Assembly: GCA_029938215.1 (NCBI GenBank)
Contig: JAOZVJ010000002.1
Location: 1-48,698 of the forward strand
DNA from: Arcobacteraceae bacterium
Lineage (GTDB): Bacteria; Campylobacterota; Campylobacteria; Campylobacterales; Arcobacteraceae
DNA: 48,698 bases
Direction of reading: 5' to 3'
A program made the position numbers and the translations under genes. The notes beneath the pieces are model-generated. The model did no database searches and was not told the origin of the DNA. It saw nothing but the letters and a program-made list of their open reading frames with translations. Positions 4,721 to 25,532 of this stretch are shown here, in pieces (the first letter of the stretch is position 1; every line of letters starts with the position of its first letter).

Positions 4721-4746
4721 TTTAAGATAATAAAAAAGGATAAAAT

Positions 4747-5052
4747 GTGATAACTAAAGAAGAAATATATAAGGCAATATCGACTGTAAATGATCCAGAA
4801 GTTGGATTTAATTTAGTAGAAATGGGTTTGATTTATGATGCAACTTGCGATGAGAATTATAATGCAAAAGTAACTATGACTTTAAGTACGAAAGCTTGTC
4901 CGCTACATCAAATGATTGTTCAATGGGTAGAAGAAGCAGTGTTAAGAGAAATTGAAACTATTCAAAATGTAGAAGTAGAAGTAGTGTGGGAACCAGCTTG
5001 GAATATATCTATGGCATCTGATGAGGTAAAAGCTAAATTAGGTGGCTCTTAA
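4747..5052 (+). CDS. DUF59 (SufT/MIP18-like) Fe-S assembly-associated protein
   Basis: GTG start 6 nt after AAGGA. 101 aa with ITKEEIYKAISTVNDPEVGFNLVEMGLIYD..., the hallmark DUF59 N-terminal motif. Confidence 0.75.
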   Translation: MITKEEIYKAISTVNDPEVGFNLVEMGLIYDATCDENYNAKVTMTLSTKACPLHQMIVQWVEEAVLREIETIQNVEVEVVWEPAWNISMASDEVKAKLGGS

Positions 5053-5077
5053 TTAAAAAAATAAAAAAGGAAGTATT

Positions 5078-6133: not shown

Positions 6134-7408
6134 TTGTTTCAAGGCTTATCAACTAATCAAGCACCTCCAATAAGTGTACCTTTTAGATTTTTTTTAACTG
6201 CACCTTTATTTGGTATTTTAATATCTTTCGTTTTTTTTAATTTTCCAGCAGAAGAAATATTCAATAGATATTCTCCTGTTGCTATTGGAACTATTCATCT
6301 TTTTACTTTAGGAATTTTATCACAGATTGTATTTGGTGCATTACAACAAATGCTTCCAGTTTTGGCCGGTGTTGTTATTAAAAAGCCACTTATTTTTGCT
6401 AATATTGTACATACAACTTTAACTTTTGGAACTTTATTTTTAAGTTGCGGATTTATATTTTCACAAGAATTATTATTTCCAATTGGGGCAGGGTTGTTAT
6501 GTATCGCTTTTGGTTTCTTTTTCTTTGTGATAATTAGACTTTTATTTAAAGTAAAATATATTACAAGCACTGTAAATGCTATGAAAATATTTGCATTAGC
6601 TGGGTTGGTCACTGCTTTAATAGGAATTTATTTGATATGGCAATATATAGATGTAAATATTAATTCTTATCATTATTTAATTACAAATATCCATATTTTA
6701 TTTGCTAGTTTTGGATTTGCTATTATATTGATAATGGGTGTAGCTTTTCAAGTAATTCCTATGTTTTATGTGGCAAAAGATTTTCCAAAATTCATACAAA
6801 ATAAATTTCCAAGAGTTTTATTTTGTATGATGATTTTATGTGCAATTTTTATAATTTTAAAACAAGATATAAGCATAATAAAATTTATTATATCTTTTAT
6901 GATTATAATATTTGCATTATATGGATTAAATAGTTTAAATAATAGAAAAAGATTAGTTTCTGATGTAACACTATGGTATTGGAAATTTTCATTTTATTCT
7001 TTAATTGTATCAATGTTGATTTTTGTAACACAGTTTTATAAGTCTGACAGTCTTTTGGCGATAATTTTTATATTTGGTTTTTTATATCCATTACTGCAAG
7101 GTATGATTTATAAAATTATTCCATTCTTATCTTGGTTTCATCTGAGTAGTCGCGGTTATTTTTCTATACCAAATTTAAGAGAATATATAAAAGAAGATAG
7201 TATTAAAGTGCAGTTCTATATTTATGTTTCCTCTTTTTGTTTCTTTGTTTTAAGTATATTTTTCAACCAATTATTTTTATATATAGCATCATCTTTATTT
7301 ATGATATCAAATTTAATGTTTTTATTTAATATGATAACTGCAATTTTAAAATATCGTAAAATTTCAAAAACAAATCCAATGGATATTTTTAATATGAGTA
7401 ATAAATAA
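6134..7408 (+). CDS. Polytopic membrane protein, paralogue of 3488-4720 (possibly NnrS-like)
   Basis: TTG start 3 nt after the hemerythrin stop. 424 aa. Motifs parallel the first copy: IHLFTLGILSQIVFGALQQMLPVL, IHILFASFGFAIILIMGVAFQVIPMF, GMIYKIIPFLSWFHLS. Confidence 0.5.
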   Translation: MFQGLSTNQAPPISVPFRFFLTAPLFGILISFVFFNFPAEEIFNRYSPVAIGTIHLFTLGILSQIVFGALQQMLPVLAGVVIKKPLIFANIVHTTLTFGTLFLSCGFIFSQELLFPIGAGLLCIAFGFFFFVIIRLLFKVKYITSTVNAMKIFALAGLVTALIGIYLIWQYIDVNINSYHYLITNIHILFASFGFAIILIMGVAFQVIPMFYVAKDFPKFIQNKFPRVLFCMMILCAIFIILKQDISIIKFIISFMIIIFALYGLNSLNNRKRLVSDVTLWYWKFSFYSLIVSMLIFVTQFYKSDSLLAIIFIFGFLYPLLQGMIYKIIPFLSWFHLSSRGYFSIPNLREYIKEDSIKVQFYIYVSSFCFFVLSIFFNQLFLYIASSLFMISNLMFLFNMITAILKYRKISKTNPMDIFNMSNK

Positions 7409-8046
7409 TGCAACAATTTAGTAGATGTAAAAGTTTATTTGGTGATAATTTTCAAAAATTACAAAAAGCTAAAATAATTATTTTAGGTGTCGGAGGAGTC
7501 GGTGGTCATGCTCTTGATTGTCTTTATAGAAGCGGTGTGCAGGATATTACAATAGTTGATTTTGATAAATATGAATTAACAAATCAAAATAGACAAATAG
7601 GAAGTGATGCGATTGGTATATCTAAAGTTGAACATTTGAAAGTTTTATATCCAAATATAAAAATAATTTCACAAAAGATAGACTTACAGTGGGTTGAAGA
7701 TTTTGATATGTCTGAATTTGATTTGATTTTGGATGCAATAGATGATATAAAACCAAAAATACAAATTATTAAGAAGTATTATGAAAAACTAATTAGTACA
7801 ACCGGAAGTTCAAAAAGACAAGATCCAACAAAAATAGAATATATAAATATTTTTCAAACATATAGCGACCCATTTGCGAAAAGAATTAGAAAAGAATTAA
7901 AAAAAGAGAATTTTGATAAAGATTTTAAAGTAATTTTTAGTAGTGAAGAACCAAAATGTAAAGATATGGGAAGCTTTATTGGGGTTACTGGCTCATTCGG
8001 TCTCTTTATGTGCTCTGTTGCGGTTGATAAATTACTTAACAAATAA
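7408..8046 (+). CDS. tcdA: tRNA threonylcarbamoyladenosine dehydratase (ThiF/MoeB E1-like, TcdA/CsdL family)
   Basis: 212 aa with Rossmann motif ILGVGGVGGHALDCLYRSGVQDITIVDFDKYELTNQNRQ. The ATG shares one nt with the upstream TAA (TAATG at 7406-7410). Confidence 0.75.
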   Translation: MQQFSRCKSLFGDNFQKLQKAKIIILGVGGVGGHALDCLYRSGVQDITIVDFDKYELTNQNRQIGSDAIGISKVEHLKVLYPNIKIISQKIDLQWVEDFDMSEFDLILDAIDDIKPKIQIIKKYYEKLISTTGSSKRQDPTKIEYINIFQTYSDPFAKRIRKELKKENFDKDFKVIFSSEEPKCKDMGSFIGVTGSFGLFMCSVAVDKLLNK

Positions 8047-11517: not shown

Positions 11518-13458
11518 TTGTCACAACAATTACTTCAAAAACAAGCAGATACTATTAGATTTTTGGCTGCTGATATGGTACAACAAGCAAATAGCGGACA
11601 CCCTGGTGCTCCTATGGGTATGGCTGATATTGCTACGGTTTTAAGCAAGCATTTAAAATTAGACCCACAAAATACCAAATGGCTAAATAGAGATAGATTG
11701 GTTTTTTCTGGCGGACATGCTAGCAGTATGGTTTATTCACTTTTGCATCTTTGGGGATTTGATGTAACTATTGAAGATTTAAAACAATTTAGACAAACTG
11801 GGAGTAGAACACCAGGGCATCCAGAATATGGACATACTAGTGGAGTAGAAATTACAACTGGTCCTTTGGGGCAGGGTGTTGCAAATGCAGTTGGCTTTTC
11901 AATGGCAAGTGAATATGCAAAATATTGTTTAAATAGCGAAACTGCAAAAATAATAGATCATCATGTTTATTGTTTTTGTGGCGATGGAGATATGCAAGAA
12001 GGAATTTCTTATGAAGCTTGTGCAACTGCTGGACATCAAAAGCTTTCAAATTTAACTATTATATATGATTCAAATGATATTACAATTGAAGGCGATATTA
12101 GTATTGCTTGGAGTGAAGATGTTGCAAAAAGATTTGAAGCTATTAATTTTGATGTAGTAACTATAGATGGTCATAATTTTGATGCTATTGATAAAGCTTT
12201 TGCAGATAGTAGAAACAGTGACAATCCAACTTTAATAATAGCTAGGACTGCTATTGGAAAAGGTGCTGCCACATTAGAGGGTAGTCATCATACTCATGGA
12301 GCTCCCTTGGGACATGAAGAATTATGTGCTTCAAAAGATAAGGCTTGTTTTGATTCTAATGAATCTTTTGTTGTTTCTGATGATATAAAAAAAGCTTTTG
12401 ATAAAACTTCAAGCGGAGCGTTGTTAAGTAAAGCCTGGAATAAACTTGTAAAAAAAGATTTACCGTTAAGCGAACAAAATGAAACTTTAAATGCTTTATT
12501 AAATCCTGATTATTCAAAAATTCAATATCCTGATTTTAGTGAAATAAAAGAGATGGCAACTAGAGATTCAAATCATAAAATTTTAAATGCTATTGCTAAA
12601 GCTGTTCCGTCTTTTATTGGTGGAAGTGCAGATTTAGCACCATCAAATAAAACAGAATTGAATGGACTTGGAGATTTTCCAAAAGGAAGAAATATCCATT
12701 TTGGTATCAAAGAGCATTCAATGGCAGCAATAGTAAATGCTATGAGTATTTATGGCTTATTTAGAGTTTTTAGTGCAACATTTTTTATATTTAGCGATTA
12801 TTTAAAGCCAGCAGCTAGAGTAGCAGCTTTGGCAAATATACCTGCTCATTTTGTTTGGACTCATGATAGTATTGGTGTTGGAGAAGATGGTGCAACACAT
12901 CAGCCAATTGAACAACTTAGTCAATTTAGAGCATTGCCAAATTTTTATACTTTTAGACCAGCAGAAGCAACTGAAAATATAGAATGTTGGAAAAAAGCAT
13001 TAACTATGCAAGCTCCAACTGCATTTGTTTGTTCAAGACAAAAACTTAAAACTTTAAAACCTCAAAAAGAATTTGGTGAAGTTTCAAACGGTGGATATTT
13101 ACTTGCAAAGAGGGAAAATGCAACAGTTACACTTATGGCAAGTGGTAGCGAAGTAATGCTTTCTCTTATGACAGCATGCCATCTTGAAGATGATTTTGGA
13201 ATCAAATGTAATATTGTTTCTGTCCCTTGTTTTGACTTATTGTGTGAGCAAGATAAAACATACATAGATAAGATAATAAATCCAGATACAACCGTAATAG
13301 CAGTAGAAGCAGCATCTGCGATGGAATACTATAAATTTGCAGATTATGTTATAGGTATGGAAGGCTTTGGAGAAAGCGGACCAGCTGGAGAACTTTTTGA
13401 TAAATTTGGTTTTACAATAGATAAATTAAAATTAAAAATTAAAGAATTGATTAATTAA
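11518..13458 (+). CDS. tkt: Transketolase
   Basis: TTG start after AGGA. 646 aa with ANSGHPGAPMGMADIA, the ThDP motif GDGDMQEG, and HDSIGVGEDGATHQP. Confidence 0.95.
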   Translation: MSQQLLQKQADTIRFLAADMVQQANSGHPGAPMGMADIATVLSKHLKLDPQNTKWLNRDRLVFSGGHASSMVYSLLHLWGFDVTIEDLKQFRQTGSRTPGHPEYGHTSGVEITTGPLGQGVANAVGFSMASEYAKYCLNSETAKIIDHHVYCFCGDGDMQEGISYEACATAGHQKLSNLTIIYDSNDITIEGDISIAWSEDVAKRFEAINFDVVTIDGHNFDAIDKAFADSRNSDNPTLIIARTAIGKGAATLEGSHHTHGAPLGHEELCASKDKACFDSNESFVVSDDIKKAFDKTSSGALLSKAWNKLVKKDLPLSEQNETLNALLNPDYSKIQYPDFSEIKEMATRDSNHKILNAIAKAVPSFIGGSADLAPSNKTELNGLGDFPKGRNIHFGIKEHSMAAIVNAMSIYGLFRVFSATFFIFSDYLKPAARVAALANIPAHFVWTHDSIGVGEDGATHQPIEQLSQFRALPNFYTFRPAEATENIECWKKALTMQAPTAFVCSRQKLKTLKPQKEFGEVSNGGYLLAKRENATVTLMASGSEVMLSLMTACHLEDDFGIKCNIVSVPCFDLLCEQDKTYIDKIINPDTTVIAVEAASAMEYYKFADYVIGMEGFGESGPAGELFDKFGFTIDKLKLKIKELIN

Positions 13459-13905: not shown

Positions 13906-15516
13906 ATGAAATTGAATAAGTTAGTTTTAAGTACTGTTGCAGCTGCAACTTTAATGAGTGTTAATGCTGTAGCATTTGATGCAGAAATATCATATGAGAG
14001 AGAATGTCAAGGTTGTCATGGACCTGCTCATCAAGGTGGTGTTGGTAGTGATATTAGACCTGATGTTATCAAGGGTAAAAATGCTCAAATGTTAGCTGAA
14101 ACCATTTTAGAAGGTAGAGCTGGTACAGCAATGCCTCCACACAATGCGATTTTATCTAAAGGTGACGCTTCGGCAATGGTTGATTATTTACAACATTTTA
14201 TGGGTAAAAAAGAGATGGTTTTAACTCTTGATGCTGTTAAAGCAAAATGGAGAACTTTTAACGACAGAATGAAATTATTTAAAAAATATCCAAAAGCTGC
14301 AGATGTATCTGATGCTAAAGATATTTGTTTTGTAACAGAGAGAGATGCTTCTAAAGTTACTTTCTTAGATGGTACAAAAGGTACAAAACTATCAACTCAC
14401 CCAGCTGGTTTTGCTGTGCATGTTACAGTTACAAATAAAAGACAGCCAAGATATGCGTACTCTATATCTAGAGACGGTCTTCTTACAATGTTTGATTTAA
14501 ATTCTAAAGGTCAGCAAAAAATTGCTGAAGTTAGAGTTGGATCTGAGTCTAGAGGACTTGCAGTTTCTCCAGATGGTAAATATGTTATGGCTGGTAACTA
14601 CACTCCAGGTGGAGCAGTACTTTGTGATGCTATGACTTTAGAGCCACTTAAAGTATACCCTACTTCAAGCGTAATTAATAACGAAGGTAACATTGAATCT
14701 TCAAGAGTTGCTTCAATTGCTGATACACCATATGGACCTTACTTTGCATTTGCACTTAAAGATGCTGGTCATGTTTATATCGTAGATTATTCTAAACCAG
14801 ATTTTCCAGTAGTTGGTGATATTCCAAATATTGGTAACATTCTTCATGATGCATTCTTAAATGAAGGTAAAGAAATCGGTAGATACTATATGATTGCTTC
14901 TCAAGGTTCTGATTTAATTGGTATCGTTGACTTTAAAACTAAATCTTTAGCTGCTAAAGTTTATACAGGTTCTAAAGCTAAGCCACATCCAGGTCAAGGT
15001 TCATCTTGGTACAATGAAGAATATGGACAATTGCATGCAACTGTTAATATGAATGTTGGTCAAGTAACAATCTGGGACAATAACTGGGATGTTGTAAGAC
15101 ATATACCAACAGGTGGAGGAGCTTTATTTGTAGGTACATCTGAGCATACACCTTGGATTTGGGCTGATAATGTATTAGGTGGACCAGCTAACTGGAATAA
15201 AGTACACTTAGTAAACAAACAACATTTAGAAGTTGATAGAATTATTGAAGTTGGTAAAAAAGAAGGTAAACTTATTGATGCTAAATCTCATAAAACTATT
15301 GCTTCTTGGAAAGTTCCTACTTCTAAAGTAGTTCCAAGAATTTTACATGCTGAGCCAGCAAACCATGGTCAATGGACTATGATTTCTGAGTGGAATACAG
15401 GTAGAATTGGTATCTATGAAGCTACTACAGGTAAATTTGTTAAGTATATCACAGGATTGACAACTCCTACATTTACTTACTCAATTGAGCATAGACAAAC
15501 TATACCAGGCGCTTAA
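13906..15516 (+). CDS. nirS: Cytochrome cd1 nitrite reductase
   Basis: RBS AAGGAG. 536 aa with a signal peptide, N-terminal haem c site CQGCH, then a long beta-propeller region with typical cd1 segments (FAVHVTV..., PHPGQGSSW). Confidence 0.9.
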   Translation: MKLNKLVLSTVAAATLMSVNAVAFDAEISYERECQGCHGPAHQGGVGSDIRPDVIKGKNAQMLAETILEGRAGTAMPPHNAILSKGDASAMVDYLQHFMGKKEMVLTLDAVKAKWRTFNDRMKLFKKYPKAADVSDAKDICFVTERDASKVTFLDGTKGTKLSTHPAGFAVHVTVTNKRQPRYAYSISRDGLLTMFDLNSKGQQKIAEVRVGSESRGLAVSPDGKYVMAGNYTPGGAVLCDAMTLEPLKVYPTSSVINNEGNIESSRVASIADTPYGPYFAFALKDAGHVYIVDYSKPDFPVVGDIPNIGNILHDAFLNEGKEIGRYYMIASQGSDLIGIVDFKTKSLAAKVYTGSKAKPHPGQGSSWYNEEYGQLHATVNMNVGQVTIWDNNWDVVRHIPTGGGALFVGTSEHTPWIWADNVLGGPANWNKVHLVNKQHLEVDRIIEVGKKEGKLIDAKSHKTIASWKVPTSKVVPRILHAEPANHGQWTMISEWNTGRIGIYEATTGKFVKYITGLTTPTFTYSIEHRQTIPGA

Positions 15517-15563
15517 TAGCATTTATTTTCTCTCTCTCTTTTTGAGAGAGGGAAGATATAAAA

Positions 15564-15602
15564 AAAGGTAAGAAGTACTTTTTGTACTTTTTGCCTTTTT
15601 TT
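15564..15602 (+). terminator. Rho-independent terminator after nirS
   Basis: 15-bp stem AAAGGTAAGAAGTAC (15564-15578) / GTACTTTTTGCCTTT (15584-15598; two G-U pairs), T5 loop and trailing T-run. A CT/GA-rich hairpin at about 15528-15555 precedes it. Confidence 0.8.
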
Positions 15603-15727
15603 ATTGTCGATTTAAAATTATAAACGGAAAATATAAATCATTGTATTTTAATTTTTTAATAAGTATAAAATGTATTTTAAAGTTTCTATTGTATAATTTC
15701 GAATAAACTAATTTTATAAGGAAAGTC

Positions 15728-16846
15728 ATGAAAATTTTTGGAATATTTTTTATCTTATTTTTATCTTTTTTAAGTGCTAAATATTTGGATACTAAAAGTT
15801 GTGCAGAGTGCCATGAGATGATTCATTATGAGCATACACATTCGATGCATCATAATTCATCTTTATTTAAAGATGAGTTTCATAGAAAAATTAAAGAAAA
15901 AACATATCCTAATAGTTATCTTTGTGCTTTATGTCATACGCCTGCTGCAAAAAATCTAAGAGCAGTTATTACAGGAAAAGAGCAACCAAGCCAAACAAAA
16001 GAACAATCTGATGGTGTTTCTTGTTTTTATTGCCATCAAATAAACAAAGTTCTTATTACAAAGCATGAAAATATAAATTTTTATGCTTTTTCTCCAGGCT
16101 CAAAACCAAAGTTTTTTGGAAACTTAAAAAATCCAGATACCAGTGATAAACATAAAAGCGACAGTACAAATAAAATTTATAAAAATTCTCAAGTTTGTAT
16201 GGGGTGTCATGGTAAAAAATTTAACAAATATGATGTAGAAATATGCAATGGATTAGATGAAAAAGGAAAAACAAGCGATTGTATAAGTTGTCATATGCCT
16301 AAATTTCCTGGAGGCACTACAAAACTTAATAAAAGAGGAAGAGAAGAATACACATCTCACGAGTTTCTTGGAATAAGATCTGATGAAATGATACAAAAAG
16401 CAGTTGAATTAAGTTTAAAAGTTTTGGATAAGAATTCGATACAATTAACAATAAAAAATAAAATGGGTCATTCTATAATAATGCAACCAATGAGATTAAA
16501 ATTTGCTCAAACTGAAATTGTAAGATTTGGAAAAGTAGTTTGGAAAAATTTTAAGAAATATCCAATAGAAGACAAAAAAGCAACTTTTACAATTCTTTTT
16601 AAAAACAATGATGGCAAGCAGGTTCTTCCTCCATCTGCAACTGGATATAAATATAAAAATAATTTAAAAGCAAATCAAGCAAAAGAAATTGTTTATAAAG
16701 TGCCAGAACTTCAAAAAGGTGATATTATAAAAAGTACTTGGATAAGTTATGTTTTAAGACCGGCTTTGGCAAAAACTTTAAAAATAACTGATAGGGAAAT
16801 GTTAAAAAAATATATTGGGACGAAAACTAAAATAGTTGTTAAATAA
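15728..16846 (+). CDS. Pentahaem c-type cytochrome with a haem-free C-terminal domain
   Basis: 372 aa with a signal peptide. All five CxxCH sites (CAECH, CALCH, CFYCH, CMGCH, CISCH) fall in the first ~190 aa. It has its own TATAAT (15692-15697) after the nirS terminator. Confidence 0.85.
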   Translation: MKIFGIFFILFLSFLSAKYLDTKSCAECHEMIHYEHTHSMHHNSSLFKDEFHRKIKEKTYPNSYLCALCHTPAAKNLRAVITGKEQPSQTKEQSDGVSCFYCHQINKVLITKHENINFYAFSPGSKPKFFGNLKNPDTSDKHKSDSTNKIYKNSQVCMGCHGKKFNKYDVEICNGLDEKGKTSDCISCHMPKFPGGTTKLNKRGREEYTSHEFLGIRSDEMIQKAVELSLKVLDKNSIQLTIKNKMGHSIIMQPMRLKFAQTEIVRFGKVVWKNFKKYPIEDKKATFTILFKNNDGKQVLPPSATGYKYKNNLKANQAKEIVYKVPELQKGDIIKSTWISYVLRPALAKTLKITDREMLKKYIGTKTKIVVK

Positions 16847-16866
16847 ATACTAATTTTATAATACTT

Positions 16867-16900
16867 GGAGGTAAATTTGTAAAAGTTACCTCCTTTTTTT
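16867..16900. terminator. Bidirectional terminator between the pentahaem cytochrome gene and the Sel1-repeat gene
   Basis: Stem GGAGGTAA (16867-16874) / TTACCTCC (16886-16893) followed by T7. Confidence 0.7.
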
Positions 16901-16911
16901 ATTGTAAAGTT

Positions 16912-17532
16912 TTAGTATTTTTCCAAATTAAATTCTTCCCACATTAATGATGCTTTTTTACTTCCAGTATCTTTTGCTTTTTTAATCCAAAAAGAAGCTT
17001 TTTTGTAATCAACCTTTGTTCCTTGACCACCAATATACATAAAACCCAAATTTAATTGAGCATTAATATTTCCAGCACTTGCAGATTTTTCATACCATTT
17101 TAGAGCCATTTTTAAATCAGGTTTAGTTCCTAATCCTCCAGTGTAAAGATATCCCAAATTATAAGCAGCTTCTGAATTCCCAGCATTTCCAGCTTTTTCA
17201 AACCACTTTAAAGCTTTTTTAAAATCTTGCTTTACGATAATCCCTGAGGCATAAATATTTCCTAACTTATTAAAAGCATAAATATTTCCAGCATTTGCAG
17301 ATTTTTCAAACCATACAAAAGATGTTTTTTGATTTTTCTCTATACCATCGCCATTTGCGTACATAATGCCTATATTTAACATTGCACGATTATCGCCTTC
17401 TTTTGATGCAATAAGAAAATTCTCAAAAGCTTGTTTAAAATTTTCTTTTTTATAAAGACTTAATCCGTCATCATAACTTCCGCCAAATAAATATGTGCAT
17501 ACTAAAACTGATGTAAACATTTTTTTCAACAT
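16912..17532 (-). CDS. Secreted Sel1-like repeat (SLR) protein
   Basis: 206 aa with a signal peptide. Tandem ~36-aa repeats of the type A..W[FY]EK[SA]A..GN..A...LG.[MI]Y..G.G (four to five copies). Confidence 0.85.
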   Translation of the reverse strand: MLKKMFTSVLVCTYLFGGSYDDGLSLYKKENFKQAFENFLIASKEGDNRAMLNIGIMYANGDGIEKNQKTSFVWFEKSANAGNIYAFNKLGNIYASGIIVKQDFKKALKWFEKAGNAGNSEAAYNLGYLYTGGLGTKPDLKMALKWYEKSASAGNINAQLNLGFMYIGGQGTKVDYKKASFWIKKAKDTGSKKASLMWEEFNLEKY

Positions 17533-17598
17533 TGATAAATTCCTTTTTAGAGATTTGTTGTAAATTTTTAAATTATATCCAAAAATACTAATATTTAA

Positions 17599-17612
17599 TT
17601 GATAATTATCAA
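17599..17612. promoter_or_regulatory. Perfect Crp/Fnr-family box TTGAT-N4-ATCAA in the divergent Sel1 / haem d1 operon promoter region
   Basis: TTGATAATTATCAA. A -10-like GATAAT/TAATAT (17633-17640) lies at class II-type spacing. The start codon is at 17673. Confidence 0.65.
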
Positions 17613-17672
17613 CTTAAATGAATTATAAATATGATAATATATTACCTTTAAAATATAGAGGATAGCTAGTAT

Positions 17673-18002
17673 ATGAATAGTATAGTTAAATCGGTTTTTT
17701 TTATAATATTTTTATTTAATATTGTATATGCCAATCAATTAACAACAGGTGAAAAAGTTTTTAAAGCATATTGTTGGGGATGTCATCATCAAACATCAGT
17801 AGCGTTTGGTCCATCATTTGAAGAGATTGCAAATAAAAGATCAACAGGTGAAATACAAGGACATATCGTAAGTCCTAAATCTACATACAAACAACTTGGA
17901 CATAAAAGAAGTGTAATGCCAGCTTTTGGCGATAAGTTATCGCAAAAAGAACTTGATCTTATTACTAATTTTATTTTAAACTATAAGACAAAAGGTAAAT
18001 AA
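17673..18002 (+). CDS. Monohaem class I cytochrome c (NirC/NirM-like by context)
   Basis: 109 aa with a signal peptide, a single CWGCH site and a distal Met region (RSVMPAF). It is the first gene of the nirJ-nirF-nirE operon. Confidence 0.75.
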   Translation: MNSIVKSVFFIIFLFNIVYANQLTTGEKVFKAYCWGCHHQTSVAFGPSFEEIANKRSTGEIQGHIVSPKSTYKQLGHKRSVMPAFGDKLSQKELDLITNFILNYKTKGK

Positions 18003-19123
18003 TGTTTAGACTTTCAAATTTAATAAAATCAACTTTGGAAAATAAAAAAGAACGACTTTTAAATGGTTCTATAATGATATGGAATTTTACAAATAGATGT
18101 AATCTTTTTTGCCATCATTGTTATAGTAAAGCAGATGCAAACGGAACAGATACTTTATCGTTCGAGCAAATTTGTGATACAATTCCTGGTATGTTAAATG
18201 CTGGTGTTAAATTTGTTATATTTAGCGGTGGAGAGCCATTGATAAGAAAAGATATTTTTGATATCGCAGATGAAATGAAAAAAGCTGGAATCATTACATA
18301 TTTATCTACAAATGGTATGTATATAAATGAAAAAAATGCAAAACAAATTGTAGATACATTTAATTATATAGGCATTAGTATTGACGGAATAGAAGAGATT
18401 CATAATCAATTTAGAGGACATAAAGATTCATATAAAAAAGCAATAGAAGGCATAAAGCATATTCAAAAAGCAGGTGGAAATGCAGGTATTAGATTTACAT
18501 TGACAAAAGAGACGAGAGATAGTTTTTATTCGATGTTTGATTTGGTTGAGGAATTAGGTGCTAATAAACTTTATATATCACATTTAGTATATTCTGGTCG
18601 CGGACTTGATAATCTTGAAATAGATATTACAAAAGAGGAAAGAAGAAAATATGTTGAGTTTATTATAGACAAAGCATTTGAATATTACAAAGCAGGAAAA
18701 GATATAGATGTAGTTACTGGAAATATGGAGATGGATTCTGTTTTATTAATTCAAAGATTTCAAAAAGATTATCCAGAGTTTGTCGATTCTTTAACTACTA
18801 AGCTTAAGGCTTGGGGCGGAAATAGTGCAGGTAATCGTTTGGGTAATATGGATTGGGAAGGAAATGTTAAGCCAGACCCATTTTTTCCAGAATATATTGG
18901 TAATTATTTAGAAACTTCATTTGAAGATGTTTGGGCAGGAAAAAGTAGTGATATTGTTGAAAAATTAAGACAAACACCACGAAATATAAGTGGCAGATGT
19001 AAAGAGTGTAAATATCTTGATATTTGTAATGGCGGAAGCAGAAGTAGAGCTTACGCGATACATGATGATTTATGGGCAGAAGATCCATCGTGTTATTTAT
19101 CTCTTGATGAGATAAGTAAATAA
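18002..19123 (+). CDS. nirJ: Haem d1 biosynthesis radical SAM protein NirJ
   Basis: 373 aa. Radical SAM motif CNLFCHHCY (CxxxCxxC) plus a C-terminal Cys cluster CKECKYLDICNGG. The ATG overlaps the upstream TAA. Confidence 0.85.
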   Translation: MFRLSNLIKSTLENKKERLLNGSIMIWNFTNRCNLFCHHCYSKADANGTDTLSFEQICDTIPGMLNAGVKFVIFSGGEPLIRKDIFDIADEMKKAGIITYLSTNGMYINEKNAKQIVDTFNYIGISIDGIEEIHNQFRGHKDSYKKAIEGIKHIQKAGGNAGIRFTLTKETRDSFYSMFDLVEELGANKLYISHLVYSGRGLDNLEIDITKEERRKYVEFIIDKAFEYYKAGKDIDVVTGNMEMDSVLLIQRFQKDYPEFVDSLTTKLKAWGGNSAGNRLGNMDWEGNVKPDPFFPEYIGNYLETSFEDVWAGKSSDIVEKLRQTPRNISGRCKECKYLDICNGGSRSRAYAIHDDLWAEDPSCYLSLDEISK

Positions 19124-19152
19124 AAAATTAAAATTAAAAATTGGGAGAAAAA

Positions 19153-20298
19153 ATGAGAATTAAAAATCAAATATTATTTGTACTTATATTTATTTGTTCA
19201 TCATTGTTCGGATATGAAAAATATTTTGTAGTTGAGAGAGAATCATCATCGTTGGCTGTTATTGAAAATGGCATAAAATATTCTGTTATGGAAAATATGA
19301 GAAATATGAATCATGGTGTTGTAAAATTTGAAGGAAAAGATGGTTATGTTATCAGTCGTGATGGTTATGTAATCAAATTTGATCCAATCAAAGAAAAAAT
19401 TTTAGCTGAATATAAAACAAGCAAAAGTGCAATTGGATTTGTAATAGGCAAGCATTATGTAGCAGTTGCAAATTATGATGATAAAAGTGTCGATATTTTG
19501 GATAGAGATTTAAAACCTATAAAAAAAGTTAAAACTGGATCAAAAAATGTTGGCATAAAAATATATAAAGATTATTTGATTTTTGCACAAATGGATAATG
19601 ATAAACTTACTATTTTAAAAGATATGAATTGTGGGGCAAAAAAACCAAATTTTAAATTATATAAAGAATTTGAAAATGTTGGAGAGTTGCCATTTGATGC
19701 GATGATTCAAGATAATAAATATATTGTAGGATTTTTTACATCTAAGCATTTTGGTACTATTGATTTAGATGCAATGACTTTTAAAAAAGTAAAAATATTT
19801 TTAGATGAAAAAAGAAAAATGGTGCTAAAAGTTCCTCATTTTGGTTTTTGGTCAATAGGTGGAGATAAGGTTTTTGTTCCTGCAGTTGGTGATAATAAAG
19901 TTTTAGTTTATGATATGAATTTTAATTTTATACAAAATATTAAAACAGAAGGAATGCCAGTATTTACAAGTTTAAGTCCTGATAAAAAACATTTAGCTGT
20001 TACTTTTAGTGGTAAAAAATTTCCAGTTATTCAAATAATAGATACAAAAACCTTAAAAATTATAAAAAGATTTGAATTTGAAGGTAAAGTTTTACATGTA
20101 AGATGGTCAAAAAATAAACCACATTTGTATGTTTCTGTAAATGATGCAAATGTAGTAGCAGTTCTTGATGTAAACGATTGGTATAGAGCAAGAGATGTTT
20201 TAAATATAAAAAAACCATCTGGTATCTTTATATATGATGCCCAAGGTCATGAATCACCCGCAACAACTTTTCAAAGTAAAGGACGAAAATATGAGTAA
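19153..20298 (+). CDS. nirF: NirF-like cd1-type beta-propeller protein (haem d1 biosynthesis), no haem c site
   Basis: ATG 19153, preceded by GGAGA, is preferred over TTG 19141. 381 aa with a signal peptide, a propeller-like repeat pattern and no CxxCH. Confidence 0.7.
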   Translation: MRIKNQILFVLIFICSSLFGYEKYFVVERESSSLAVIENGIKYSVMENMRNMNHGVVKFEGKDGYVISRDGYVIKFDPIKEKILAEYKTSKSAIGFVIGKHYVAVANYDDKSVDILDRDLKPIKKVKTGSKNVGIKIYKDYLIFAQMDNDKLTILKDMNCGAKKPNFKLYKEFENVGELPFDAMIQDNKYIVGFFTSKHFGTIDLDAMTFKKVKIFLDEKRKMVLKVPHFGFWSIGGDKVFVPAVGDNKVLVYDMNFNFIQNIKTEGMPVFTSLSPDKKHLAVTFSGKKFPVIQIIDTKTLKIIKRFEFEGKVLHVRWSKNKPHLYVSVNDANVVAVLDVNDWYRARDVLNIKKPSGIFIYDAQGHESPATTFQSKGRKYE

Positions 20299-21025
20299 GA
20301 CAGTACATTTAGTTGGAGCTGGACCTGGAGATATAGAATTAATGACAGTAAAGTCTTTAAGACTTATAAGAGAAGCAGATGTTATTATTTTTGATAGGCT
20401 AGCAAATCCTTTAATTCTTAAAGAAGCACCGCAAGGATGTGAATTTATAGATGTTGGAAAAACTGATGGAAAACATCCAGTAAAACAACCTGAAATTAAT
20501 GAGATAATATATCAATCATCTTTAAAATATGAAAATGTTGTAAGATTAAAAGGTGGTGATCCATTTGTATTTGGTAGAGGTGGTGAAGAAGCTTTGTATT
20601 TAAGAGAAAGAGGTGTTGGTTTTGATATAATTCCGGGGATTACTTCAGCAATTAGTGTTCCTGCATATGCTGGAATACCAGTTACTCAAAGAGGAGTTGT
20701 GAGTTCTTTTAGAGTAATAACAGGACATGAAGCTCCAGGAAAAGCAGTATCTCAAATTGATTGGGATTCTTTTGCAACAGATGAGACTTTGGTATTTTTA
20801 ATGGGATTAAATAATCTTGGAAGAATATCGTCAAATTTGATTAAAATTGGAAAAAGAAAAGATTATCCTTGTGCTGTTATTAGCAAAGGAACTACAGAAA
20901 ATCAAAAAGTTGTTATAGGAACACTTGAAACAATAGAAGAAAAAGCAAAAGGATTAGAAACTCCAGCTCTTATAATTGTTGGTGAAGTTGTTAATTTAAG
21001 AGATGAACTTAGGTGGTTTGACTAG
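20291..21025 (+). CDS. nirE: Uroporphyrinogen-III C-methyltransferase (SUMT; NirE/CobA)
   Basis: ATG 20291 overlaps the nirF stop (ATGAGTAA). MSKTVHLVGAGPGDIELMTVKSLRLIREADVIIFDRL and RLKGGDPFVFGRGGEE are SUMT signatures. Confidence 0.85.
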   Translation: MSKTVHLVGAGPGDIELMTVKSLRLIREADVIIFDRLANPLILKEAPQGCEFIDVGKTDGKHPVKQPEINEIIYQSSLKYENVVRLKGGDPFVFGRGGEEALYLRERGVGFDIIPGITSAISVPAYAGIPVTQRGVVSSFRVITGHEAPGKAVSQIDWDSFATDETLVFLMGLNNLGRISSNLIKIGKRKDYPCAVISKGTTENQKVVIGTLETIEEKAKGLETPALIIVGEVVNLRDELRWFD

Positions 21026-21037
21026 CCTTGCAAATAT

Positions 21038-21943
21038 ATGGTAAATAAATTTCATAAGTATATAAAAGCAGTAGGTACAGGTTCTAAGCATAATTGTGAT
21101 TTATCACGAGAAGAGATGTGCGAAATGATGACTGCTGTTTTGAAATCAGAACTTTATTCTGAACAGGTTAGTGCCTTTTTGTTGGGATGGAGAGTTAAGC
21201 CTGAAACTGTTGAAGAATTTATAGGCGCATTTGATGCTTTTGATAAGTTTATTAAAAAAGTACCTATAGAAAATTCTATCGAAATAGGTTATCCTTATGA
21301 TGGAAAAGTAAATAATCCATATTTGTTTTTGCTAATGGCAAAATATTTAAAAAAATATAATTTAAATATTGCTGTAAGCGGAGATGAACTCCAGCCAGCT
21401 AAATCAGGTATTACCGTAAAAGAAATTTGTGAAAATAAAAACCCAGAAGATAATTTATTTTATTTTGATAGAAAAGATTATTTTAAAGAACTAAGTTCGC
21501 TTACAACAATAAGAAACAGACTTGGTTTAAGAACTGGTATCAATTCTATTGAAAGACTTTTGAATCCTACAGATTCTAAAATTGCTCTTTTGGGTGTGTT
21601 TCATAAACCTTTTGTGCAAAAATATGTTGATATATTTTCGCAAAGATATAAAAAACTAATCATAATTAAAGGCAATGAGGGAACACCTGAAATTTTTAGT
21701 AAATGTAAATATTGGATTTGCGAAAACAATCAAATATCAGAACATATAATAGATCCATTAGATTTTGGAATAAATTATAAAAAATCATGGGATAAAATTT
21801 CATTAAAACAATCACTCGACACAATAGCCAATCCATCAAATGAATTGATTAAATTAGTAAAATTAAATGTGGCAATGTTGCTTTTTGTAGCAAATAAAGT
21901 TCAAACTATTGAAGATGGGTATAAAGCACTGGAGATGTGCTAA
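21038..21943 (+). CDS. TrpD-like (glycosyltransferase family 3 fold) protein with degenerate catalytic motifs
   Basis: 301 aa. The N-terminal helical part LSREEMCEMMTAVLKSELYSEQVSAFLLGWRVKPETVEEFIGA and the segment RNRLGLRTGINSIERLLNP parallel TrpD. However GTGGDG is replaced by GYPYDG and KHGN by VSGD. Confidence 0.55.
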   Translation: MVNKFHKYIKAVGTGSKHNCDLSREEMCEMMTAVLKSELYSEQVSAFLLGWRVKPETVEEFIGAFDAFDKFIKKVPIENSIEIGYPYDGKVNNPYLFLLMAKYLKKYNLNIAVSGDELQPAKSGITVKEICENKNPEDNLFYFDRKDYFKELSSLTTIRNRLGLRTGINSIERLLNPTDSKIALLGVFHKPFVQKYVDIFSQRYKKLIIIKGNEGTPEIFSKCKYWICENNQISEHIIDPLDFGINYKKSWDKISLKQSLDTIANPSNELIKLVKLNVAMLLFVANKVQTIEDGYKALEMC

Positions 21944-22024
21944 ATTAAAATATTTTCAATTTTATCAACTAAATATTATTTTAAAAATGCTATCATTGTC
22001 TAAATTAATTATAAAGGCTGTAGT

Positions 22025-22354
22025 ATGAAATTATTCAAAAAAGTGGCATTGGGTGCTGGAGTAGCTTTGATGTTGAGTTCGACAAATTTATCTGCTGCTG
22101 TTTACACAGTAGAGTCTGGTGATACATTAAAGAGTATTGTTATTAAATTGGGGTTCGATTCTCTTGATGCATCTGGTATTAAGACAGTACCTTCTGGAAA
22201 TTTTAATAAAATATTTCCTGGTGATGAAATAGAATATGCTAAAAAGAAAAAGAAAAAAAGATTTTCTCAGAAAAAACAAAAAACAAAATCAACAAAATTT
22301 TGTTTTAAAGATAATCGTTCTATACATTATAGAGCAAGTGAGAGATGTAAATAA
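22025..22354 (+). CDS. Secreted LysM-domain protein with poly-Lys linker and a basic Cys-loop C-terminal module
   Basis: 109 aa. Signal peptide (...NLSA/AV), LysM-like YTVESGDTLKSIVIKLG...IFPGDEIEY, then KKKKKK, then RFSQKKQKTKSTKFCFKDNRSIHYRASERCK. Confidence 0.7.
   Translation: MKLFKKVALGAGVALMLSSTNLSAAVYTVESGDTLKSIVIKLGFDSLDASGIKTVPSGNFNKIFPGDEIEYAKKKKKKRFSQKKQKTKSTKFCFKDNRSIHYRASERCK
22259..22354 (+). repeat. Copy 1 of a 96-nt direct repeat encoding the shared C-terminal module
   Basis: Differs from 22661-22756 at only two positions, by my manual alignment. Confidence 0.9.
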
Positions 22355-22462
22355 TTTTATTTTTGTAAAATAATTGTTTAGACTGGATGTTGTTTTTGGT
22401 GATACGATTTATAAATTGTATTTAATGTGGTATTTTAGAATTTTTAATAAAGTGAGGTTTAT

Positions 22463-22756
22463 ATGGTAAATTTAGTTATAAAAGGTGTAGCAGCTAGTTT
22501 GTTAGCATCATTATTGTTTTCAGGGTGTACAGCAACTACTCAAAGCGTAGAGAAAGATGAAGTAAAAAAAGCTCAAATTTCAGAAGTAAAAAAAGTTGAA
22601 GTTTCAGCAACAGCAAATGAAGTTGAAATTGTAAAAGAAAAGAAAAAGAAAAAGAAGAAAAGATTTTCTCAGAAAAAACAAAAAGCAAAATCAACAAAAT
22701 TTTGTTTTAAAGATAATCGTTCTATACATTATAGAGCAAGCGAGAGATGTAAATAA
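22463..22756 (+). CDS. Lipoprotein with E/K-rich linker, poly-Lys and the same C-terminal Cys-loop module
   Basis: 97 aa. Lipobox LLFSGC, then a charged linker, KKKKKKK, then RFSQKKQKAKSTKFCFKDNRSIHYRASERCK. Confidence 0.7.
   Translation: MVNLVIKGVAASLLASLLFSGCTATTQSVEKDEVKKAQISEVKKVEVSATANEVEIVKEKKKKKKKRFSQKKQKAKSTKFCFKDNRSIHYRASERCK
22661..22756 (+). repeat. Copy 2 of the 96-nt direct repeat
   Basis: Offset is exactly 402 nt from copy 1. Mismatches are a/g (Thr/Ala codon) and t/c (synonymous Ser). Confidence 0.9.
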
Positions 22757-22785
22757 AAATTTATATTTTACTTGAATATATTAAA

Positions 22786-22811
22786 AAGAGATAGAGTTTT
22801 ATCTATCTCTT
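22786..22811. terminator. Hairpin between the second small-protein gene and the convergent nirDL-type gene
   Basis: 10-bp stem AAGAGATAGA (22786-22795) / TCTATCTCTT (22802-22811). Confidence 0.6.
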
Positions 22812-22830
22812 CTATTTGATAACATATAGA

Positions 22831-23826
22831 TTATATGTAGCTTTCTTCCCATTTTTCAAAATCTTTAGAAAAATATTTTATTCTTACTTTTTTAAATTCT
22901 CTTGATGAGTATAAAGGCATATAAGATTTATATTTAATTTCTTTTTTTATATCTTCAATCACATTGTTTGTGTCTTCGGTTGTTTTGCCATGAATCATTG
23001 TAAAAAGATTAAATTTCCAATTATCATATTTTGGTCTTAAATAACAATGACTTACTGCACTAAAAGAAGCTGCAGTTTTTCCTATATTTTCACCATCTTT
23101 TTCATCTACATCCCATACAACCATTGCATTTGCATTAAATCCAGCATTTCTATGATTTAAAATTGAAGCAAATCTTCTCATCATTCCGCTTTTTTGAAGT
23201 TCATCAACTATACGAAAAAATTTATCATAATCAATACGGAGTTTTTTAATAATATCTGCAAATGGTTTAGATTTTATTTCAATATCATCTTGCAAAAGTC
23301 TAACAACATCCATATGCAGAGGTGTCATATCGATATTAATTTTTTCTTTTTTAGTAATTTTTTCTTTCTTTTCTTCTTTGCCTGTAGTATCTAATTTTAC
23401 GGAAATTTTAAAAAGTTTTAAAGTTGGTAGCATTATATAGTCATTAGATTTTGTTAATTTTGCTAAAATTTCTATGGTTTTATCTAGCCCAAATTTGCTA
23501 TCAGGGGCTACAGCCATAGTAAACCAGATGTTGAACTTATGATTTCTTTCATAATTGTGTGAAACACCAGGGTGTGCATTTATAATTTTAACTGCATCAT
23601 CAATTTTATCTTCATCTATTTCAAAAGCTACAAGTGATGATTTATAACCTAAACTTTTAGTATCAAATATTGCTGATGTTTGTCTTATAATTTTTAGCTC
23701 TTTTTGATCTTGTATTATTGAAATAACTTCATTTTCGCTAATTCCAAGTTCTTTGGCAATAGCCTCAAAAGGTCTTGCTACAAGAGGAAAGTTCTTTTGT
23801 ACTCTTAGTAAAATTTCTTTAGTCAT
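22831..23826 (-). CDS. Fused AsnC/Lrp-like siroheme decarboxylase (NirD/L/G/H, AhbA/B family)
   Basis: 331 aa = two tandem modules. Each has an N-terminal HTH-like part (e.g. LLRVQKNFPLVARPFEAIAKELGISENEV and VVRLLQDDIEIKSKPFADIIKKLRIDYDKF) followed by an AsnC-type domain. Confidence 0.7.
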   Translation of the reverse strand: MTKEILLRVQKNFPLVARPFEAIAKELGISENEVISIIQDQKELKIIRQTSAIFDTKSLGYKSSLVAFEIDEDKIDDAVKIINAHPGVSHNYERNHKFNIWFTMAVAPDSKFGLDKTIEILAKLTKSNDYIMLPTLKLFKISVKLDTTGKEEKKEKITKKEKINIDMTPLHMDVVRLLQDDIEIKSKPFADIIKKLRIDYDKFFRIVDELQKSGMMRRFASILNHRNAGFNANAMVVWDVDEKDGENIGKTAASFSAVSHCYLRPKYDNWKFNLFTMIHGKTTEDTNNVIEDIKKEIKYKSYMPLYSSREFKKVRIKYFSKDFEKWEESYI

Positions 23827-23976
23827 TGTAATCTTTCTTATTGTTAAATTTTTAAAAGTTATTGTATCGAATATAGGTAATTTTAAGATTAATTTATATT
23901 AATATTTATTAATTTCTTTTATGATAAAATGCAAATACAAATTAAGCCCAAAAGGGTTAAACCAAGGAGCGTTATA

Positions 23977-24552
23977 GTGGCTTATTTTCCAGCTTTTATA
24001 AAACTAGATAGTATTGATATTTTAATAGTAGGTGGCGGTTATATCGCAAGTGAAAAACTAGAGCATTTGCTTGATTTTACAAAAAATATTACAGTAATAG
24101 CACCAAAGCTAGATGCAAATATGAAAAAAATGATTGATGATAATAGCTTGCCATATGAAAATAGAATTTATAAAAAAGCAGATATTAAAAGTTTTGGTGT
24201 AGTTATAGTTGCCGTTGATGATATACCTTTGCAAGAAGAGATTTTTAAAGAAGCTAAAACTTATCCAAACTGTTTGGTAAATAGTGTTGATAGTGTAAAT
24301 TATTGTGATTTTATATTTCCATCTTATATAAAAAAAGACGATTTAACAATCGCGGTTTCTACAAGCGGAAGTTCTCCAGCAATGGCAAAACATTTAAGAA
24401 GATATTTGCAAAATTTAATACCTGATTCTATTGGTGATTTTTTAAGGAAAATGAAAGACTATAGAAAAACTATGCCAAAAGGAAAAGAGAGAATGGAATT
24501 TCTTGATAAAAAAGCACAAGATTATATATCAACTTGGAATAAAAAAATATAA
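23977..24552 (+). CDS. Precorrin-2 dehydrogenase / sirohydrochlorin ferrochelatase (SirC/Met8/CysG N-domain-like)
   Basis: GTG 23977, 7 nt after AAGGAG, is preferred over ATG 23929. FPAFIKLDSIDILIVGGGYIASEKL (Rossmann) and LTIAVSTSGSSPAMAKHLR match the CysG N-domain. Confidence 0.7.
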   Translation: MAYFPAFIKLDSIDILIVGGGYIASEKLEHLLDFTKNITVIAPKLDANMKKMIDDNSLPYENRIYKKADIKSFGVVIVAVDDIPLQEEIFKEAKTYPNCLVNSVDSVNYCDFIFPSYIKKDDLTIAVSTSGSSPAMAKHLRRYLQNLIPDSIGDFLRKMKDYRKTMPKGKERMEFLDKKAQDYISTWNKKI

Positions 24553-24555
24553 CTT

Positions 24556-24972
24556 GTGAGATTAAATAAAATATTATTCTTTTTATGTTTGTTTGGATTT
24601 ATTGTAAATATAAATGCTGACCACATAAGATGGCATGGAAATTATGAAAAAGCATTGCTTGTTGCAAAAAAACAAAATAAACCATTGATGGTATTTCTGA
24701 GAAAAAAAGATTGTGCGGATTGTCGAAAAATGCTAGAGGTTAGTTTCTTAAATCAGTCATATGTAAAAAAATTAAATGACAAATATATCGCAGTAATTGC
24801 TACTTATGAAGGTATGAGTAACTACCCGATTGAAATGTTTTACACTTTAGATTTTCCTACATTATTTTTTGTATCATCCAATGACGAGTCATTTTTAATT
24901 GATCCAATTTCTGGATTTGTGACACCAGATGATTTGAATTCTAGTATTGAGTTGTTGCATAATTTAAATTAA
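24556..24972 (+). CDS. Secreted thioredoxin-fold protein with CxxC
   Basis: GTG start. 138 aa with a signal peptide (...NINA). NYEKALLVAKKQNKPLMVFLRKKDCADCRKM is typical of thioredoxin_7/DUF255-like proteins. Confidence 0.55.
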   Translation: MRLNKILFFLCLFGFIVNINADHIRWHGNYEKALLVAKKQNKPLMVFLRKKDCADCRKMLEVSFLNQSYVKKLNDKYIAVIATYEGMSNYPIEMFYTLDFPTLFFVSSNDESFLIDPISGFVTPDDLNSSIELLHNLN

Positions 24973-25532
24973 AATAAATTTGATTGTTCTAATGATTTTA
25001 TTTTAAAACTTTTTCTATGAAAATCTGAATACCCAAATTTTTTAATAGCTTCCACATGAGCTTTTGTTCCATAGCCTTTATGTTTTTCAAAATTATATTC
25101 ATGATATTTTAAAGCAACTTCACACACAAATCTATCTCTGCTTACTTTTGCCAAAATTGAAGCAGCACTAACCTCTTTGATAGTTGCATCTGCTTTTATT
25201 TTGTGTTCTAGATTTTCAATTCCAAAAGATGTATTTCCATCCATAAGATATGTTTTGGCATCTAAGTTTTTCATTATTTCTGTAATAGAATTTTTTAATG
25301 CCTTGCTTAAACCAATCTCGTCTAAAGCTATATTGCTGACGAATACTATATGATAAAATGAATTTTCTTTAATTGTGTCAAATAAGGCTTCTCGTTTTTT
25401 TTCAGTTAATTTTTTTGAATCGTTTAGTCCGCATATGTCTTTTTTTAACACAACGCCTGCTACTACCAAAGGACCTGCAAGAGGACCTCTCCCAGCTTCA
25501 TCAATACCGCATAAGTTATTTGTTTTTTTCAT
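24969..25532 (-). CDS. rnhB: Ribonuclease HII
   Basis: 187 aa with the catalytic motif GIDEAGRGPLAGPLVVAGV and DSKKL. Confidence 0.92.
   Translation of the reverse strand: MKKTNNLCGIDEAGRGPLAGPLVVAGVVLKKDICGLNDSKKLTEKKREALFDTIKENSFYHIVFVSNIALDEIGLSKALKNSITEIMKNLDAKTYLMDGNTSFGIENLEHKIKADATIKEVSAASILAKVSRDRFVCEVALKYHEYNFEKHKGYGTKAHVEAIKKFGYSDFHRKSFKIKSLEQSNLF

Follow-up and report, generated by a model that had tools for sequence, protein, structure and literature searches.

A conserved basic Cys-loop tail on two small, predicted envelope-anchored proteins in a haem d1 gene island of an Arcobacteraceae bacterium

Why do two neighbouring genes encode proteins that begin differently and end in nearly the same peptide, and why do they stand among the genes for haem d1? 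The question is raised by ORF A and ORF B, two small open reading frames (ORFs) in contig JAOZVJ010000002.1 of an Arcobacteraceae bacterium (assembly GCA_029938215.1). The window analysed here is the stretch from position 1 to 48,698 of this contig, 48,698 nucleotides (nt) in length. An earlier note on this DNA had described both products as secreted proteins with different anchors and one shared tail. Our best explanation is that ORF A and ORF B are paralogues of an Arcobacteraceae-restricted family of small proteins, presumably Sec-exported and anchored in the envelope. The N-terminal parts of these proteins (lipid anchor, LysM-like domain, or both) would be interchangeable tethers, and the C-terminal module would be the conserved working part.

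One C-terminal peptide on different anchors

Both ORFs were found where the earlier note had placed them. The ORFs below were taken from the ORF list and the repeat copies from a repeat search; the core motifs were delimited by the residues invariant in an alignment of 22 homologues (ORF A) and by lipoprotein and tail alignments (ORF B).

22025-22354, + strand: ORF A, 109 amino acids (aa); predicted Sec signal peptide at aa 1-24 (site NLSA↓A), LysM-like beta-alpha-alpha-beta domain at about aa 26-72, poly-Lys run, tail
22463-22756, + strand: ORF B, 97 aa; predicted lipoprotein signal peptide with lipobox LFSG-C22, charged helical linker, poly-Lys run, tail
22241-22354, + strand: repeat copy 1, from the poly-Lys run of ORF A through linker and Cys-loop core to its stop codon
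22643-22756, + strand: repeat copy 2, from the poly-Lys run of ORF B through linker and Cys-loop core to its stop codon
22298-22348, + strand: core motif of ORF A, F92-C108, FCFKDNRSIHYRASERC
22700-22750, + strand: core motif of ORF B, F80-C96, FCFKDNRSIHYRASERC

The direct repeat that joins the 3′ ends of the two genes extends over 114 nt at 97% identity, its copies lying 402 nt apart. Of its three mismatches, read off the sequence, two are synonymous (one in a Lys codon, one in a Ser codon) and the third is a Thr/Ala difference. The runner-up among direct repeats in the 3-kb region measures 38 nt at 71%, and the 114-nt repeat cannot be due to chance. The 96-nt repeat with two differences reported before is accurate for that sub-range of the slightly longer full repeat. 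In translation, the repeat gives poly-Lys and then RFSQKKQK[T/A]KSTKFCFKDNRSIHYRASERCK. In this 31-residue tail, two Cys residues are spaced by 14 residues (C93/C108 in ORF A, C81/C96 in ORF B), and the computed charge of about +8.8 and isoelectric point (pI) of 10.5 agree with its first description as extremely basic. The polybasic stretch is probably helical.

The tail recurs in a family of proteins with a common signature, a Lys/Arg-rich stretch followed by F-C-F-x4-S-I-H-Y-[KR]-x2-[EQ]-[RK]-C. The residues F, C, F, S, I, H, Y and C are invariant in the 22 LysM-type homologues and also in the tail and lipoprotein alignments. Searches with the single proteins yielded 22 clusters of LysM-type proteins and a few lipoproteins. 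A profile of the tail alone, built with a naturally extended member placed first, recovered 25 clusters, all of small lipoproteins with 76-90 aa; two of these clusters had also come up in the single-protein searches. When 1.84 billion representative proteins were scanned exhaustively by a hidden Markov model of the full-length lipoprotein alignment, 33 clusters (50% identity) were returned, all with a C-terminal tail. Among 185,579 species genomes there were eight tail loci, all in metagenome-assembled genomes (MAGs) of uncultured Arcobacteraceae/Campylobacterales.

Across all homologues, the tail was carried by a lipobox protein, by a LysM-like domain or by both fused (P0063, P0067), and by nothing else; it is the sole part common to all members. 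The idea that one peptide is presented on two anchors thus holds for the family as a whole. Nor does the tail belong to a named domain, as had been suspected. Pfam, NCBIfam and PADLOC returned sub-threshold noise only (Acid_PPase, HAD-IIIC, CARF), the PDB sequences gave a chance match of seven residues, the repeat had no match in Rfam, and a literature search found no paper on the family. Current annotations call members 'hypothetical' or 'LysM domain-containing', or give them the wrong names 'major membrane immunogen' and 'TadD'. Judged by these searches, the tail is a peptide module new to the literature, narrow in distribution and borne by envelope anchors of familiar types. It is not a categorically new system, since no new mechanism has been demonstrated. 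One metagenomic lipoprotein of 119 aa, P0066, has a partial internal duplication of the tail (...DVHSIHYKAV...KFCFKDARDIHYRASDKCK).

For ORF A, the signal peptide proposed earlier was upheld by the alignment, in which the n-region, the hydrophobic region and the NLSA↓A site are kept across the 22 homologues (50-61% identity). The LysM domain claimed for the same protein found support in the fold and fell short in the sequence score. Against Pfam LysM (PF01476), ORF A reached 13.4 bits (cut-off 20.9) over profile positions 1-12 of 43 only, and NCBIfam gave only faint matches to LysM-bearing proteins. Two homologues (P0003 and P0015) carry a precomputed PF01476 match, and one homologue bears the NCBI name 'LysM domain-containing protein'. 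In the AlphaFold (AF2) model, the core is a beta-alpha-alpha-beta unit (strands at residues 24-28 and 68-72, helices at 35-41 and 47-50) with a predicted local distance difference test score (pLDDT) of about 80-86. A Foldseek search of the PDB with this model returned LysM domains as all of the top 17 matches (probability up to 0.97); the template modelling (TM) scores against isolated LysM domains were 0.66-0.68 at weak E-values of 0.1-1. The model thus supports a LysM-like fold for ORF A, weak as the resemblance is in sequence, and the protein may bind peptidoglycan.

ORF A resembles LysM proteins (PF01476; for example the modules of MltD and NlpD) in having a signal peptide followed by a module of about 45 residues (YTVxSGDTLxxI...IFPGDxI). 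It differs from them as a single-domain protein that has no enzymatic partner domain and stays below the Pfam threshold. Moreover, no described LysM protein in the profile and PDB searches has a basic C-terminal Cys loop.

The lipobox of ORF B, KGVAASLLASLLFSG-C22, fits the pattern [LVIF]-[ASTVI]-[GAS]-C. All 25 aligned homologues have its Cys (consensus L-[TAI]-[AG]-C), as the earlier lipobox assignment would lead one to expect. Lipobox and signal peptide were assigned from alignment and pattern. On these grounds, ORF B is a predicted signal peptidase II lipoprotein that would be lipidated at C22, and both proteins are predicted to be exported. The AlphaFold model of ORF B consists of a long charged helix (residues 33-79) that runs into the tail.

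Selection on the tail and exchange of its carriers

In 18 aligned tails, the variable sites at codon positions 1, 2 and 3 numbered 7, 7 and 13, and wherever F, C, F, S, I, H, Y or E is invariant, its codon varied solely at the third position. Because change at the invariant residues is synonymous only, selection acts on the peptide and not on a DNA or RNA element; the latter reading of the repeat was rejected on these codon positions. A wider view would deny the tail any protein function and treat it as a nucleic acid element or as part of spurious or decaying ORFs. This view could appeal to the AT-rich region with its long A-runs, to a family without annotation and to the low AlphaFold confidence of the tail. 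Yet both frames are intact in all lineages and have a conserved ribosome-binding site, Rfam offers no match, and elsewhere the peptide is kept while the DNA diverges to 62-70% identity. The codon positions and the intact frames largely refute such a view, which in our estimate has next to no chance of being right.

For the near-identity of the two tails, the earlier note had left a choice between recent gene conversion and strong constraint. Over 90 nt, the tails of the window are 97.8% identical, compared with 62-70% for the pairs in L001, L004, L008 and L009. In a tree of 33 tails, grouping follows the carrier: those on lipoproteins form one clade and those on LysM proteins another. The tails of the window depart from this, being mutual nearest neighbours (d=0.03), and those of L021 do so more weakly (d=0.13). 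The lower identity of the other pairs, the free synonymous variation and the carrier-type tree decide for gene conversion over constraint. We conclude from these comparisons that the window tails were recently homogenised by lineage-specific gene conversion and that such events are episodic. The poly-Lys tracts at 22241-22262 and 22643-22664 are long A-rich coding runs (AAAAAGAAAAAGAAAAAAAG) and form the 5′ edge of the gene-conversion tract. Long A-rich runs can provoke slippage of ribosome or polymerase.

The carriers occupy the same slot of the locus in four arrangements. A LysM gene followed by a lipoprotein gene was found in nine lineages, the window included, a lipoprotein alone in eight and a fused lipobox-LysM-tail protein in one. 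In the remaining four lineages, there is no lipoprotein gene and the LysM protein has an extra basic C-terminal extension of 15-25 residues. The extension occurs only where the lipoprotein gene is absent (four of four, versus none of the nine pairs); two or more of these four are independent of each other, and the others may go back to a common ancestor. The extended LysM members at these loci are the following.

L002, 10001-10396: extended LysM member
L007, 6001-6396: extended LysM member
L010, 6001-6390: extended LysM member
L011, 6001-6399: extended LysM member

The extension ends in SSH, DSH or AAH at these four loci and in P0004; P0012, P0014 and P0068 are also extended and end otherwise. 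Most tails end in Lys, and the last residue varies among K, R, Q, N, E and D. Because residues may follow the tail and its last residue is variable, mechanisms that need a free and specific C-terminus are unlikely. PDZ binding, a tail-specific protease and an Lpp-like Lys cross-link were rejected as general mechanisms on this variation and on the extension of several members past the second Cys.

The paired arrangement raises the possibility of an envelope bridge, in which the tails of lipoprotein and LysM protein would associate, non-covalently or through intermolecular disulfides, and tie the membrane to the peptidoglycan under anaerobic or denitrifying conditions, as a split tether of the Lpp/Pal type. 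Lpp and the Pal/OmpA-type tethers are likewise small envelope lipoproteins or peptidoglycan binders, and a lipoprotein with a wall-binding partner suggests bridging. In contrast to them, the tail family has a variable terminal residue and, in some members, 15-25 further residues; it also lacks an OmpA-like domain and a predicted coiled-coil trimer. Membership of the Lpp-type covalent tethers was rejected because the C-terminal Lys is not invariant and several members are extended. A looser bridge would account for a pair that is always adjacent and always ordered LysM before lipoprotein in nine lineages, for a polybasic extension that is present exactly where the lipoprotein gene is missing, for fused proteins that unite lipid anchor and LysM domain, and for the two Cys in each tail. 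It would not account for the eight lineages with only a lipoprotein at the locus, and it leaves the tight linkage to haem d1 genes unexplained. Moreover, the fused form joins both anchors and yet keeps the tail, which must then do more than dimerise. We regard a bridge as unlikely.

The haem d1 island and its Crp/Fnr-type boxes

The position inside a nirS/haem d1 island, seen already in the earlier note, is confirmed by the genes around ORF A and ORF B. They are listed here with the predicted transcription signals.

13906-15516: nirS
15728-16846: multihaem cytochrome gene
16912-17532, - strand: Sel1-repeat gene
17599-17612, + strand: perfect TTGATAATTATCAA box between the divergent Sel1-repeat gene and nirC (pattern search)
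17673-18002, + strand: nirC
18002-19123, + strand: nirJ
19141-20298, + strand: nirF
20234-21025, + strand: nirE
21038-21943, + strand: TrpD/YbiB-like gene
21955-21968, + strand: decayed Crp/Fnr-type box TTCAATTTTATCAA, two mismatches, centred 63 nt before the start of ORF A
21988-21996, + strand: extended -10-like TGcTATCAT, a predicted element (upstream alignment)
22786-22811, + strand: terminator-like hairpin between the convergent ORF B and nirDL (terminator scan)
22831-23826, - strand: nirDL
23929-24552: sirohaem-synthase-like gene
24556-24972, + strand: periplasmic thioredoxin-like gene
24969-25532, - strand: rnhB

The tail gene or genes lie in a haem d1 cluster in 21 of the 22 lineages with informative flanks, usually convergent with nirDL. 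What had been a hint of nitrite reductase or haem d1 biology is thus a recurrent linkage. In the remaining lineage (L004/L005/L012/L032/L033), the pair is flanked by xseA and rnhB, and no nir gene lies within 10 kb of it. At L004, CbiK and TP_methylase genes (3721-5197) lie about 5 kb upstream of the pair, and Haem_bd and UPF0093 (HemJ-like) genes (11911-12843) about 1.5 kb downstream; both may be coincidence.

In the window island (13906-25532), no nirN and no separate nirG or nirH was seen, and NirDL is a single fused protein of 331 aa. The NirJ orthologue scored 374 bits, below the TIGR04051 cut-off of 515, and NirF has an ordinary signal peptide and no canonical lipobox. The TrpD/YbiB-like gene, of glycosyl-transferase family 3, is a conserved member of the cluster, placed directly after nirE or before the tail genes; we know of no role of such a protein in haem d1 synthesis. 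Related loci contain three further genes, described here from L001.

L001 10698-11108, - strand: mem136, product of 136 aa; two membrane helices are predicted, and the soluble domain contains two Cys; no Pfam match
L001 8670-9833, - strand: mhc387, a 387-aa multihaem cytochrome
L001 12846-13226, + strand: gene after the sirohaem-synthase-like gene; its 126-aa product is hydrophobic near the N-terminus, perhaps a signal peptide, and has no Pfam match

In many lineages, mem136 lies between the tail genes and nirDL, and mhc387 is divergent. Genes for the 136-aa, 387-aa and 126-aa proteins occur at the same positions in L002, L006-L011, L014, L015, L019 and L023-L025. All three are absent from the window.

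A degenerate Fnr-type box upstream of ORF A had also been claimed. Taken alone, the window copy is not significant in AT-rich DNA, yet it corresponds in position to good boxes of related loci, where the box is conserved in sequence and place. Of 22 related loci, 18 have such a box (TTGAT-N4-ATCAA, at most one mismatch) 52-75 nt ahead of the start codon. In 16 of these the distance is 61-65 nt, a range that includes the 63 nt of the window box; the background rate of such boxes was 0.057 per 160 nt. The non-nir locus L004 retains the box. L017 and L021 lack it; there, as in the window, the TrpD-like gene immediately precedes the tail gene. Common to the upstream regions in the alignment are the box, an AAGG ribosome-binding site and, some 22 nt downstream of the box, an extended -10-like aTGtTATnAT. 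Proteins with cNMP-binding/HTH_Crp_2 domains are encoded beside the boxes in the related islands L001, L002 and L015; the Crp/Fnr-family gene of L002, for instance, lies at 7041-7595. According to a review, no FNR orthologue is known in Campylobacterota (PMC6682613).

The perfect box upstream of nirC likely marks the promoter of a nirC-J-F-E-trpD-like(-ORF A-ORF B) unit. All genes from nirC to ORF B are on the + strand with short gaps. A terminator scan from 21850 to 22900 found a single terminator-like site, the hairpin after ORF B (shuffled expectation 0.1). Since this hairpin is the only one in the scanned range and follows ORF B, read-through from the nirC promoter is suggested, and ORF A and ORF B may be co-transcribed with the nir genes.

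The periplasmic thioredoxin-like protein (predicted signal peptide, CADC motif) is conserved in several islands (L001, L002, L015, L019). It could set the redox state of the Cys pair in the tail or simply serve cytochrome c maturation. Its presence bears on a reading in which the tail would be a redox, nitric oxide or metal buffer, a tethered Cys/His/Tyr loop acting as a sacrificial or sensing thiol pair through S-nitrosation or disulfide exchange. Two Cys, one His and one Tyr are invariant, the basic context would lower the thiol pKa, and the Crp/Fnr-type box would provide co-regulation. On the other hand, so small a protein has a low stoichiometric capacity, the tail shows no known metal-site pattern, and the thioredoxin-like gene is explained equally well by cytochrome c maturation. 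We consider a buffer improbable.

The neighbourhood also bears on whether the tail might be a precursor of something released. Signal peptide, carrier, polybasic site and Cys loop follow each other as in precursors of cationic hairpin peptides, and the tail is predicted to be flexible. A periplasmic protease could cut at the Lys/Arg run and free a cationic disulfide-loop peptide of about 20-30 residues, with an antimicrobial or signal function. Thanatin, tachyplesin and arenicin are short, strongly basic, aromatic-rich loops with Cys 10-16 positions apart, like the tail. They are free secreted host-defence peptides of animals, whereas the tail is conserved on a predicted bacterial periplasmic anchor in a respiratory cofactor cluster. 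No peptide exporter, protease or immunity gene is conserved near the tail genes in the loci surveyed. A tether to wall or membrane and a place in a cofactor cluster under an Fnr-type box would be unexpected for a bacteriocin, and the highly conserved core is unlike the fast-evolving cores of most antimicrobial peptides. A released peptide is, in our view, highly improbable.

A precursor of a ribosomally synthesised and post-translationally modified peptide (RiPP) or of a peptide-derived cofactor (PqqA, MftA or QhpC type) was rejected as well: all members have Sec or lipoprotein signals, and no dedicated maturase or exporter is conserved nearby. The only radical S-adenosylmethionine (SAM) gene near the tail genes is the NirJ orthologue of the d1 pathway. 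We class the products of the tail genes as candidates for small anchored periplasmic accessory proteins of a respiratory gene cluster.

A candidate role in haem d1 maturation

What, then, might such an accessory protein do? We tentatively favour a role in which the tail, tethered in the envelope, binds an anionic partner while NirS and haem d1 mature, and give this role slightly less than an even chance. The tether would hold the tail in the periplasm, at the membrane or at the wall. There, the tail would bind an anionic partner needed in the maturation of cd1 nitrite reductase or haem d1, either a carboxylate-rich tetrapyrrole intermediate or an acidic patch of a maturation protein. Haem d1 intermediates bear several carboxylates. 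A surface for contact or ligation would be built from the invariant Cys, His, Tyr and Phe, with C-x14-C closed by a disulfide or present as free thiol ligands. The tail (charge +8.8) would face basic proteins throughout in NirS, NirF, NirC and the multihaem cytochrome (pI 8.8-9.6), so simple electrostatic docking onto these periplasmic neighbours is unlikely and was rejected.

All enzymes of haem d1 synthesis now have assigned functions, but how the product of NirJ crosses the membrane and is handled in the periplasm before NirF and NirC is still unknown (PMC13168839). By analogy with cytochrome c maturation, a more specific version would make the tail a tethered periplasmic escort of haem d1 intermediates, with the part that CcmE plays for haem. 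On leaving an exporter, the carboxylate-rich NirJ product (or its dilactone, or dihydro-haem d1) would be caught by the polybasic helix together with the Cys/His/Tyr loop and then passed on to NirF/NirC and NirS. If so, mem136, the conserved neighbour in related loci, would be a candidate for the exporter side, and the step named as unknown above would be filled. We think this escort version doubtful, with a small chance of being correct.

Two known systems show how far the analogy reaches. In Pseudomonas aeruginosa, NirF is a lipid-anchored periplasmic haem d1 maturation protein (PMC3694632, PMC13168839). It is thus a membrane-tethered periplasmic component encoded in a nir/haem d1 cluster, as is predicted for ORF B, and a precedent for a membrane-held d1 factor. 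It is also a beta-propeller enzyme of about 390 residues, whereas mature ORF B is a peptide of 76 residues without fold similarity to it. CcmE is the membrane-anchored periplasmic haem chaperone of System I of cytochrome c maturation (PMC9616876, PMC6204919); in its HxxxY motif near the C-terminus, His130 forms the covalent haem link and Tyr134 is a ligand (PMC9616876). The likeness is one of logic only, a tethered periplasmic protein that uses His/Tyr in a short motif near its C-terminus to carry a tetrapyrrole. There is no relation in sequence or fold, the tail has an adjacent H-Y and two Cys in place of HxxxY, and binding of a tetrapyrrole by the tail is hypothetical. The tail proteins were not placed among the CcmE-type haem chaperones, for the models contain no oligonucleotide/oligosaccharide-binding (OB) fold, the tail motif no HxxxY or CxxxY, and the PDB no sequence match.

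Several observations weigh against the favoured role. In two AlphaFold runs, the tail had no defined fold in either ORF (pLDDT only 56-67), and its motif matches no known haem- or metal-binding signature, having an adjacent H-Y instead of HxxxY and no CxxCH. The argument from charge is weak, as a high pI is common in this AT-rich, Lys-rich proteome. The Fnr-type box of the window has two mismatches and is not significant by itself, and the 48.7-kb window contains no gene of the Crp/Fnr family. The lineage with no nir gene within 10 kb of the pair (L004/L005/L012/L032/L033) implies that the function may not strictly depend on haem d1. Finally, every member that the searches returned comes from a metagenome or MAG.

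The family is narrow, confined to uncultured Arcobacteraceae, and the function proposed for it is that of a candidate only. Even so, the module offers the d1 cluster a concrete and cheaply testable candidate accessory factor, with a mature protein of about 76 residues and a peptide that can be synthesised. Even if the tail turned out to be unrelated to tetrapyrroles, the family would be usable as a new C-terminal module for annotation. It also appears to be a clean natural case of one peptide on interchangeable envelope anchors, with episodic gene conversion between paralogues.

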